A stretch of DNA of 10,749 bases, taken from positions 1 through 10,749 of the forward strand of contig JBEITS010000023.1 in NCBI GenBank assembly GCA_040374805.1, in the 5' to 3' direction. Shown one piece after another: positions 8,609 through 9,574 of this stretch. Below the pieces are notes generated by a model. It saw only the letters and a list, made by a program, of their open reading frames with translations, was not told the origin of the DNA and did no database searches. The position numbers and the translations under genes were made by a program. Positions within the stretch are counted from its first letter, which is position 1; each line of letters begins with the position of its first letter. Source of the stretch: Campylobacterota bacterium. GTDB lineage: Bacteria; Babelota; Babeliae; Babelales; GCA-2401785.

Positions 8609-9574
8609 ATGAAAAAATCGGGGCTGGTATTAAAAATTCCCAATCCTTATAACGGATATCCAAACCATTATCTTCGTAGAATTTGCAGTGGTCAAGGTGG
8701 TGAAAATCATTCACTTAAAAGGCAGGTTAGAAGAGTCGGTGCTTCGGCATTTATTAATGCAGAATTTTCCAAAATAGGGCTGTGTGCTCCGCAAAAAAGA
8801 TTGTGTCTAAAGCCAGGCGCAAGGATTGATGGGCCGATTAATGATAGATATTGCATTGTACTGGCAGAGTTTATTGAGGGTGACCCTGCAAGTGGTGAGA
8901 TGTCGAAATTTATATTAGATGAACAAGTAGATGCGCTTTCTTGTGTTACGAGAGAGGTTAGAACAAATGATTTTCATGATGATAATTTATTAATTTCTCG
9001 ACGATCAAGGGCATTAACACTGATAGATACTGAGCAAACGATGGCGTTTGTTTCTCATGATACATCAGAGGGGTATTTGCATGCATTTCTTACAAATATT
9101 AAGCATCCTCAGATTATGCGATATGTTTTGGGGCGTTATGTGGATCATAGAGATTTTCCGACGTTTTTCTGTGCACGTATTGAGTCTCTAGAGCGTCTTA
9201 TTCCTAAAGATGTTACGGAGGATAAGCGTATTGAATTAATGCGGCATTGGATTGTAGAATATTTGGTATTTTTGTGCACGCGTGGAGATATTACTGCCCG
9301 TCAAAAAGAAGTTCTTACCCTTTATTATTTGGGTGCAGGATATGAAGAAAATTATTTTTCGGGCTTTTCAGAGGCCGAAAGGGTTGCGAGGATGGCTGGC
9401 CTAACAAGACTTTTGGGAGAGAAATGGATGGATGGTTTTTTTCCTACGTCATTTACGGGCTCCTATGAGGTTAGGCCTGCAGTGTGTGCCGATACGGGCT
9501 CCTATGATGTTAGGCCTGTAGCGTGTGCTGTTGGAGGCACTGCGGGCGCGCGAGCGGGTGCTGGAAGTGCCTAG
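8609..9574 (+). CDS. Hypothetical protein, 321 aa, with protein-kinase-like motif order (candidate atypical kinase) and a C-terminal 13-aa tandem repeat
   Basis: The first ATG of the frame is at 8609; the frame itself stays open back into the IS, which I take to be chance. The motifs appear in kinase-like order and spacing: a Gly-rich loop SGQGGENHSLKR with a Lys at about residue 37, a hinge-like IVLAEFIEGD at about residues 84-92, a catalytic-loop-like DFHDDNLLI at about residues 121-129, and LIDTEQ 17 residues later. The C-terminus has TGSYEVRPAVCAD/TGSYDVRPVACAV and ends GGTAGARAGAGSA. The RBS is weak. The stop is TAG at 9572-9574. Confidence 0.5.
   Translation: MKKSGLVLKIPNPYNGYPNHYLRRICSGQGGENHSLKRQVRRVGASAFINAEFSKIGLCAPQKRLCLKPGARIDGPINDRYCIVLAEFIEGDPASGEMSKFILDEQVDALSCVTREVRTNDFHDDNLLISRRSRALTLIDTEQTMAFVSHDTSEGYLHAFLTNIKHPQIMRYVLGRYVDHRDFPTFFCARIESLERLIPKDVTEDKRIELMRHWIVEYLVFLCTRGDITARQKEVLTLYYLGAGYEENYFSGFSEAERVARMAGLTRLLGEKWMDGFFPTSFTGSYEVRPAVCADTGSYDVRPVACAVGGTAGARAGAGSA
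9455..9532 (+). repeat. Two-copy imperfect 39-bp tandem repeat inside the 3' end of the kinase-like gene
   Basis: acgggctcctatgaggttaggcctgcagtgtgtgccgat (9455-9493) is followed by acgggctcctatgatgttaggcctgtagcgtgtgctgtt (9494-9532), with about 6 mismatches in 39. The repeat is in frame, since 39 is 13 codons. Confidence 0.8.

Follow-up and report, generated by a model that had tools for sequence, protein, structure and literature searches.

A gene for a predicted kinase-like protein with a putative export signal, split by an IS5-family element in a Babelales contig

What does the open reading frame (ORF) at positions 8609-9574 (+) of contig JBEITS010000023.1 encode? The frame belongs to a 10,749-nucleotide stretch of Babelales DNA (assembly GCA_040374805.1; the whole stretch is referred to below as the window), comprises 321 codons and a stop, is open throughout, and was taken in an initial annotation, made from the letters alone, for a whole protein with the motif order of a kinase, paired with an exported protein. 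The answer that emerges is a different one: the ORF is only part of a gene, namely the 3' 58% of a frame of 560 codons that an insertion sequence (IS) has cut in two. As to the product of the undisrupted gene, we consider it on balance probable that it is a divergent protein-kinase-like (PKL) phosphotransferase, exported by the general secretory (Sec) route and acting on a host target, of which the window holds an IS knock-out.

One gene in two pieces

Among 5.8 billion clustered proteins the fragment has a single close relative, P0001, the 556-residue product of an intact allele, which serves here as the reference for residue numbering and conservation counts (the number of a residue in the fragment is its P0001 number minus 235). 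The two are 97% identical over all 321 residues of the fragment, and P0001 runs for a further 235 residues on the N-terminal side; these extra residues are the product of the window ORF located upstream of the IS. This 5' fragment (7016-7729, +) comprises codons 1-238 of the split gene, matches residues 1-238 of P0001 and of a second intact allele, P0010, and ends with ...DCSGAFVF, after which its frame enters seven foreign codons belonging to the IS and stops at 7751-7753. The 3' fragment (8606-9574, +) carries codons 239-560 and the stop, the 321-codon ORF beginning at an internal Met at 8609. The presumed exported partner is the first part of the same gene, and an operon of exported protein and kinase was dropped as an explanation.

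The intervening element, 873 bp in length (7730-8602, +), is bounded by perfect 17-nt terminal inverted repeats (7730-7746 and 8586-8602) and contains a transposase coding sequence (7822-8598) that matches Pfam DUF4096 (PF13340) and DDE_Tnp_1 (PF01609) and scores 175 bits against NCBIfam NF033580 transpos_IS5_3, whose cutoff is 110. The empty site is documented by L001, a metagenomic contig bearing the intact gene, which is collinear with window positions 1-7729 and 8602-10749 at 98% identity, exactly the 873-bp IS being extra in the window. In L001 the site reads GTC TTT AAA ATG, with a single TTT (the intact allele reads GTCTTTAAAATG), whereas in the window a TTT stands on either side of the IS (7727-7729, the Phe codon of ...AFVF, and 8603-8605), i.e., a 3-bp target-site duplication. 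By its DDE transposase, terminal inverted repeats and short target duplication the disrupting element is a member of the IS5 family. Its anatomy is shared by those IS5-family elements that have a single transposase ORF and a 3-bp target duplication (IS1031/IS427-like groups), and, going by the ISfinder groupings, it may belong to that subgroup; the IS5/IS402 transposases found on sequenced plasmids are only ~32% identical to that of the window. The IS is seemingly multi-copy in the population, its transposase cluster having members on five contigs no longer than 1.3 kb and on a 9,748-bp contig that is the second to carry the split allele.

Deletion in silico of 7730-8605 (the IS and one TTT) yields one 560-codon ORF, 7016-7729 joined to 8606-9574, which is 96% identical to the intact alleles P0010 and P0001 of other assemblies, with 23 amino-acid differences and no other lesion. 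Since the frame is restored without any further lesion, the insertion is recent and the gene otherwise intact. The IS lies exactly between the β1-β2 hairpin (...GAFVF; the hairpin, ...(G)GAFVF, occupies 7712-7729) and the β3 strand (VLKIPNPY) of the predicted fold described below, so that hairpin and strand are separated in the window. The 5' fragment retains the predicted signal peptide and has no active site; the 3' fragment retains the active-site residues and is devoid of signal peptide, β1-β2 hairpin, evident promoter and ribosome-binding site. The window copy is very probably a non-functional pseudogene. The same split allele and the same transposase recur in a second assembly (P0008, which is the same 321-aa ORF, and P0069), and in public records the two halves are entered as separate proteins, P0005 and P0009, the lesson for annotation being that one IS-split pseudogene has been deposited as two "hypothetical proteins".

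Both ends of the undisrupted gene can be recognized. A Shine-Dalgarno-like GGGGGA is placed 5 nt before ATG 7016, and a terminator-like hairpin (9595-9634, +) with a 17-bp stem and a T run, 21 nt past the stop, marks the 3' end. From its N-terminus, the product of the 5' fragment consists of a predicted Sec-type signal peptide (MKNLMKILLGIFVMGVFLPVQA), a domain of four helices and the β1-β2 hairpin. The N-terminus, MKNLMK-ILLGIFVMGVFLPV-QA↓F, resembles a type I signal peptide, as judged from hydropathy only, and on the same basis about 22 of the 26 family members introduced below have N-termini resembling signal peptides, the exceptions looking truncated. Directly past the predicted cleavage site is the stretch FPPLP (7082-7096, +), whose P-x-L-P is invariant in the five closest paralogs and presumably resembles eukaryotic proline-rich ligand motifs of the EVH1/WW type. 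At the other extremity, the C-terminal tail (9461-9538, +), in which a stretch of 13 residues is duplicated in tandem (GSYEVRPAVCADT / GSYDVRPVACAVG) before an end rich in Gly and Ala, is predicted to be disordered (predicted local distance difference test, pLDDT, <40).

Family, conserved residues and predicted fold

When 1.84 billion representative proteins were searched exhaustively with a hidden Markov model (HMM), only 27 clusters were retrieved, whose members are 19-37% identical to P0001; 26 usable members were taken into the scans, the alignment and the structural model, and conservation counts are out of 25 or 26 relatives, depending on the column. A viral-contig scan and one metagenome-contig scan revealed no relatives, and a profile search of the 5.8-billion-protein index, whose candidate filter saturated, brought back just 3 proteins, all of them found before. 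The initial annotation had called the ORF unannotatable, and so it proved: no Pfam family matched any of the 26 members, even at E ≤ 10, and no NCBIfam, PADLOC or PHROGs match was obtained with the full-length proteins. The Pfam result extends to PF00069 (Pkinase), PF06293 (Kdo/WaaP), PF01163 (RIO1), PF01636 (APH), PF00454 (PI3_PI4_kinase), PF03109 (ABC1/UbiB) and HipA, and sequence searches of the PDB, whether queried with one protein or with the profile of the family, returned no kinase and only noise (HlyU, COMMD1, an aminopeptidase).

Which residues, then, has the family kept? The four motifs on which the kinase-like reading was originally built, GQGGENHSLKR (with K37), IVLAEFIEGD (83-92), DFHDDN (121-126) and LIDTEQ (138-143), are present with the spacing reported at the time, but the roles assigned to them require some revision. 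The first had been regarded as a Gly-rich loop carrying the relevant Lys; however, K37 (K272) is Lys in 6 of 26 members only, whereas 24 of 25 relatives have Lys at K9 (K244, codon 8633-8635), and the true hairpin lies upstream of the IS. K244, contained in VLKIPNPY (8627-8650, +), is the candidate ATP-binding Lys of β3; it falls within strand 241-246 of the model and aligns to K44 of APH(3')-IIIa. GQGGENHSLKR was rejected as a Gly-rich loop and is best described as a family-specific loop between two N-lobe helices (GGENHS, fragment residues 30-35, 8696-8713, +; E32 codon 8702-8704), which the model puts between helices 255-262 and 276-291. The catalytic loop, formerly held to be compressed to HDDN, reads D121-F-H-D-D-N126 (8969-8986, +; D121 at 8969-8971 and N126 at 8984-8986), a canonical D-x4-N situated between helix 339-352 and strand 362-365; D356 (D121) and N361 (N126) are each found in 23 of 25 relatives and H358 (H123) in 19 of 25, while D124 and D125 are not conserved.

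The two remaining assignments fared better. D140 had been proposed as the metal-binding position, and D375 (D140, 9026-9028) is Asp in 24 of 25 relatives; it belongs to IDTE (9023-9034, +), the putative DFG equivalent, and is aligned with PKA D184 and APH(3')-IIIa D208, and the Glu of the same motif, E377 (E142), is likewise kept in 24 of 25. To consider IVLAEFIEGD the hinge was also reasonable: AEFIEG (8864-8881, +) forms the end of β5 and the hinge in the model (strand 317-322) and aligns to MEYV of PKA, its Glu being present in 18 of 26 members. The recurrence of K9, D121, N126, D140 and E142, each in 23-24 of 25 relatives despite the low overall identity, indicates that these motifs go beyond chance. 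A minority of paralogs, e.g., P0028 and P0026, lack the K, the D or the N. Compared with the HRD/DFG/APE set of the eukaryotic-type kinases, the family has TND/DFH and IDTE, and no APE.

An additional group of near-invariant residues (P0001 246-314; window 8639-8845) has no canonical kinase role. It comprises PNPY, whose P248 is kept in 25 of 25 relatives, the GGENHS loop and the two arginines that follow it in GGENHS-x-R-R-x-V-x-R-V (G266, 24/26; E267, 21/26; R273, 24/26; R277, 25/26), R303 of LRPGA (25/26) and D314 of IND, which is invariant (26/26). From the alignment, E267 may be regarded as a candidate partner of the β3 Lys. The motif set of the proposed family would accordingly read K-IPNPY, GGENHS, three invariant Arg, one invariant Asp, D-F-H-x-x-N and IDTE.

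A first AlphaFold2 model, built from 3 sequences, reached a pLDDT of 47 and was not used; with 26 homologs the pLDDT was 79.5 and the predicted template-modelling score 0.79, most 10-residue blocks of the core (231-380) averaging >90 and the lowest 82-88. In this model the core comes after an N-terminal domain made of four long helices (63-212), and its elements follow one another as in a kinase. Strands 231-236 and 241-246, the latter with K244, are followed by two helices (255-262 and 276-291) with the GGENHS loop between them, by strands 298-302 and 317-322 and by the AEFIEG hinge; next are helix 339-352, the DFHDDN loop, two further strands (362-365 and 370-373), IDTE and, finally, a helical subdomain extending to ~505 and the disordered tail. 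The model thereby matches the bilobal layout of PKL proteins (a five-stranded N-lobe sheet with an αC helix, a hinge and a helical C-lobe). The top Foldseek matches are COQ8A (2.8e-4), many APH(2'') enzymes and PI3K/PI4K, with low TM-scores of 0.2-0.38, and those in BFVD are uncharacterised pithovirus proteins together with ABC1-like and PI3K/PI4K-like viral proteins. A separate list of fold matches, in which the figure given for each is unlabelled, contains APH(2'')-Id (8.6), PI4K type II alpha (8.4), WaaP (8.4), APH(2'')-IIIa (8.1), RIOK3 (8.0), Bud32 (7.8), Rio1 (7.6), NleH1 (7.5), COQ8A (7.3), OspG (7.1) and HipA (6.8).

The register of the active site was compared by hhalign with an APH(3') profile, whose bait sequence was confirmed to be 100% identical to PDB 1j7i. 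The family core scored 24.3 (E 0.017), as against 15.8 for the reversed alignment and 12.8 ± 2.2 (maximum 19.9) for 120 column shuffles, and the alignment pairs K244 with K44, D356 with D190, N361 with N195 and D375 with D208 of APH(3')-IIIa; the comparison offers consistent, albeit weak, support for a kinase-like register. Alignments of the core with the single sequences of PKA, APH(3')-IIa and Bud32 were statistically insignificant, that with PKA placing AEF on MEY, D356/N361 on D166/N171 and D375 on D184. Read from the sequences, the spacing from D to N and from N to D is +5 and +14 in the family, and +5 and +13 in PKA. DFHDDN has the D-x-H-x-x-N look of the loops of PI3K/PI4K and HipA.

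The initial annotation had called for profile searches and for a structure prediction; the former gave no kinase family, whereas the latter gave a model whose matches are kinase-like. Its suggestion of a kinase-like fold stands on the conserved K/D-x4-N/D residues and on the predicted bilobal model, even if its motif map was in part wrong, and we hold with high confidence that the intact gene product has a PKL fold.

Within this well-known superfamily the family is new, its distinctive features being a predicted Sec signal, a helical N-terminal domain, unusual invariant residues and a restriction to obscure lineages. To the APH enzymes (PF01636), e.g., APH(2'')-Id/IVa (4dbx) and APH(3')-IIIa (1j7i), identity amounts to 9-12%, and APH lacks the predicted Sec signal peptide, the helical N-terminal domain of 170 residues and the PNPY/GGENHS/R-R-R-D motifs of the present family. 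The PI3K/PI4K lipid kinases (type II PI4K, 4pla/4hnd) have a DRHxxN catalytic loop; the family, unlike them, has IDTE instead of DFG as its metal motif and is devoid of helical or C2 accessory domains. RIO (1zp9), Bud32 (4ww5) and WaaP/Kdo (6dfl) are housekeeping enzymes of the cytoplasm, and their N-terminal extensions differ from that of the family. The resemblance to UbiB/COQ8 (ABC1; 7udp, 4ped) is limited to TM-scores of 0.22-0.32, and the UbiB signature motifs, KxGQ and AAAS, are not visible in the blocks of the family alignment. The secreted effector kinases NleH1 (4lrj) and OspG (4q5h) and the atypical kinase-like families catalogued in Legionella (Krysinska et al. 2022, PMC9758233) use type III or IV signals, whereas here the predicted signal peptides are of the Sec type; no sequence relationship with any of them is detectable.

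Possible function of the intact protein

What could an exported protein of this kind do? The gene split, the anatomy of the IS, the family, its residue conservation and its predicted fold are shown by the data; the scheme that follows goes beyond them as regards enzymatic activity, delivery to a host and class of substrate, which are inferred. The intact protein, consisting from N- to C-terminus of a predicted Sec-type signal peptide, four-helix domain, PKL domain, helical C-terminal subdomain and disordered tail, would be exported through Sec and then released from the bacterium; once in a compartment of the host, presumably a protist, it would use ATP-Mg to phosphorylate a host protein or lipid, phosphoryl transfer relying on the β3 Lys K244, on D356 as the base and on N361 and D375 as metal ligands. 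That the family is catalytically active appears likely to us, whereas action of the intact protein on a host is quite possible without being the expected outcome; more tentatively still, one may imagine a Sec-secreted family of atypical kinases, deployed by uncultivated protist-associated bacteria (Dependentiae and a clade with small genomes), expanded in tandem and rapidly evolving, that would modify host proteins or phosphoinositides and be delivered by neither a type III nor a type IV secretion system.

An effector or toxin role, already envisaged in the initial annotation, is plausible because of the signal peptides, the tandem paralogs, the fast evolution and the Dependentiae labels borne by relatives. 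The related loci carry no rRNA. The gene is single-copy in the window and in L001, L007 and L009 (the last a 672-kb contig), whereas in L002 four tandem paralogs (320-7612) of 496, 540, 557 and 510 aa, 27-34% identical to one another, lie directly upstream of nrdA. Orthologs are 27-41% identical, as compared to 72-80% for NrdA and 49% for MscK, and between the window and L001 the ratio of non-synonymous to synonymous changes (pN/pS) is 0.24-0.43 for the kinase-like gene and at most 0.10 for the flotillin and NfeD genes. Two distant family members are located on metagenome-assembled genomes labelled Candidatus Dependentiae; in a cultured member of this phylum 44% of the coding sequences have signal peptides, many of them proposed to be secreted effectors (PMC6561590). 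A sample containing relatives is wastewater or river water (PMC11984125), SRR32414321 deriving from South African wastewater or river metagenomes.

Several considerations weigh against the proposal of a secreted, host-directed PKL phosphotransferase. At the level of sequence, no HMM similarity to a kinase family exists among the 26 members at the threshold given above, and hhalign assigns the APH(3') comparison a probability of 2.7% only. Within the N-lobe, the Gly-rich loop is degenerate, G230 of the (G)xFVF hairpin being Gly in just 11 of 25 relatives, and helix 276-291, the putative αC, has no conserved acidic residue (E287, 8/26). A Sec signal places the protein where ATP is absent unless a host compartment is reached, and we know of neither a secretion system nor a host for the organism of the window. 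Moreover, proteins with a PKL fold can also AMPylate, glutamylate or serve purely as scaffolds. An unlikely alternative, in our judgement, is that the kinase-like fold serves such other chemistry (AMPylation as in SelO, glutamylation as in SidJ, a protein reportedly illustrating that bacterial kinase-fold effectors are able to do other chemistry) or that of a pseudokinase scaffold; the degenerate Gly-loop and the lack of an identified αC Glu speak for it, as do the conservation of PNPY, GGENHS, R273, R277, R303 and D314 and the loss of K, D or N in paralogs such as P0028 and P0026, whereas the full K/D-x4-N/D set, the signature of phosphoryl transfer, is retained in 23-24 of 25 relatives and the degenerate paralogs are few.

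If the domain is a kinase, its target could instead be a sugar, a lipid or an antibiotic, the protein being the bacterium's own envelope or small-molecule kinase of the WaaP/Kdo or APH kind, whose enzymes are among the fold matches. This we regard as distinctly unlikely: WaaP and APH enzymes are cytoplasmic, whereas the predicted signal peptides would direct the domain out of the cytoplasm and thus away from ATP; a copy number of 1-4, rapid evolution and a tolerated IS knock-out are atypical for envelope housekeeping, and no lipopolysaccharide or sugar genes are adjacent. Could the fold itself be an artefact of structure prediction and the motif likeness coincidental? The poor quality of the 3-sequence model, the silence of all sequence-profile libraries with regard to kinases, the noise returned by the PDB profile search and the low TM-scores favour such an opinion; set against the conservation of the motifs beyond chance, it is highly unlikely. 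Scarcely credible is the notion that the 321-aa ORF is expressed alone as a functional truncated protein, e.g., a cytoplasmic toxin driven from the IS. The ORF is admittedly intact, has an ATG start and a separate public entry (P0009), and is kept by a second strain (P0008); yet its product lacks the β1-β2 hairpin of the N-lobe, no promoter-like site reading out of the right end of the IS and no Shine-Dalgarno motif 5-10 nt before ATG 8609 were found, and no family member, save fragments, starts naturally at this point.

Should the intact protein indeed be an active secreted kinase, it would add a new family to the PKL superfamily from bacteria, Candidatus Dependentiae included, whose tools for host manipulation are almost entirely unknown; the use of classical signal peptides rather than type III/IV signals would bear on how reduced parasites deliver effectors, and the residues invariant in this family alone might hint at an unusual substrate or chemistry. 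Searching host-associated bacteria for such kinase-like families by way of remote homology is a well-established practice (PMC9758233).

The surrounding locus

The site occupied by the gene is conserved in the clade of the window, with genes for an MscK-like channel, a NUDIX protein, flotillin/NfeD, tRNA-Lys/tRNA-Glu, the kinase-like protein and nrdA; a related lineage with a syntenic locus is represented by NCBI assembly GCA_964522385.1. The initial annotation had placed the ORF in an apparently low-GC region containing an IS and close to tRNA genes. The IS and the tRNA genes are there, i.e., the IS5-family element together with tRNA-Glu (5386-5462) and tRNA-Lys (5548-5623), whereas the GC content, 0.388 over 8501-9250 versus ~0.43 for the whole window, is lower, but only slightly. 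A horizontally acquired island was considered and dropped, the position of the locus between the tRNA genes and nrdA being conserved in four related lineages and the GC being no more than slightly low.

The similarity between the window and L001 is mosaic, with at least 99.8% identity from position 1 to ~4500 and 92-98% from ~5900 to the end, which suggests a recombined or hypervariable segment beginning near the tRNA genes. Of all the genes compared between the strains, a 293-aa ORFan at 5926-6807 (+) differs most (91.8% nucleotide identity, 9 gap columns, pN/pS 0.47). Its product has a hydrophobic segment at the N-terminus and contains a run of CCCRRG; the ORFan is not conserved beside the kinase-like gene in other lineages and has no match in Pfam, NCBIfam, PADLOC or PHROGs. 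The 322-aa protein encoded at 847-1815 (-), with an evident signal peptide (MQKKQFALLAATLLALATPSASA) and a conservation of 100% from one strain to the other, likewise has no family match in these four libraries. Within 3200-5124 (-), a flotillin (Band_7/SPFH) gene overlaps by 4 nt the gene of a 199-aa membrane protein in the usual position of the NfeD partner, and this pair is kept in the related lineage L009. At the right border, 10034-10749 (+) contains the 5' end of the gene for the large subunit of a class I ribonucleotide reductase (MEQRVNSGS...), which runs off the end of the window.

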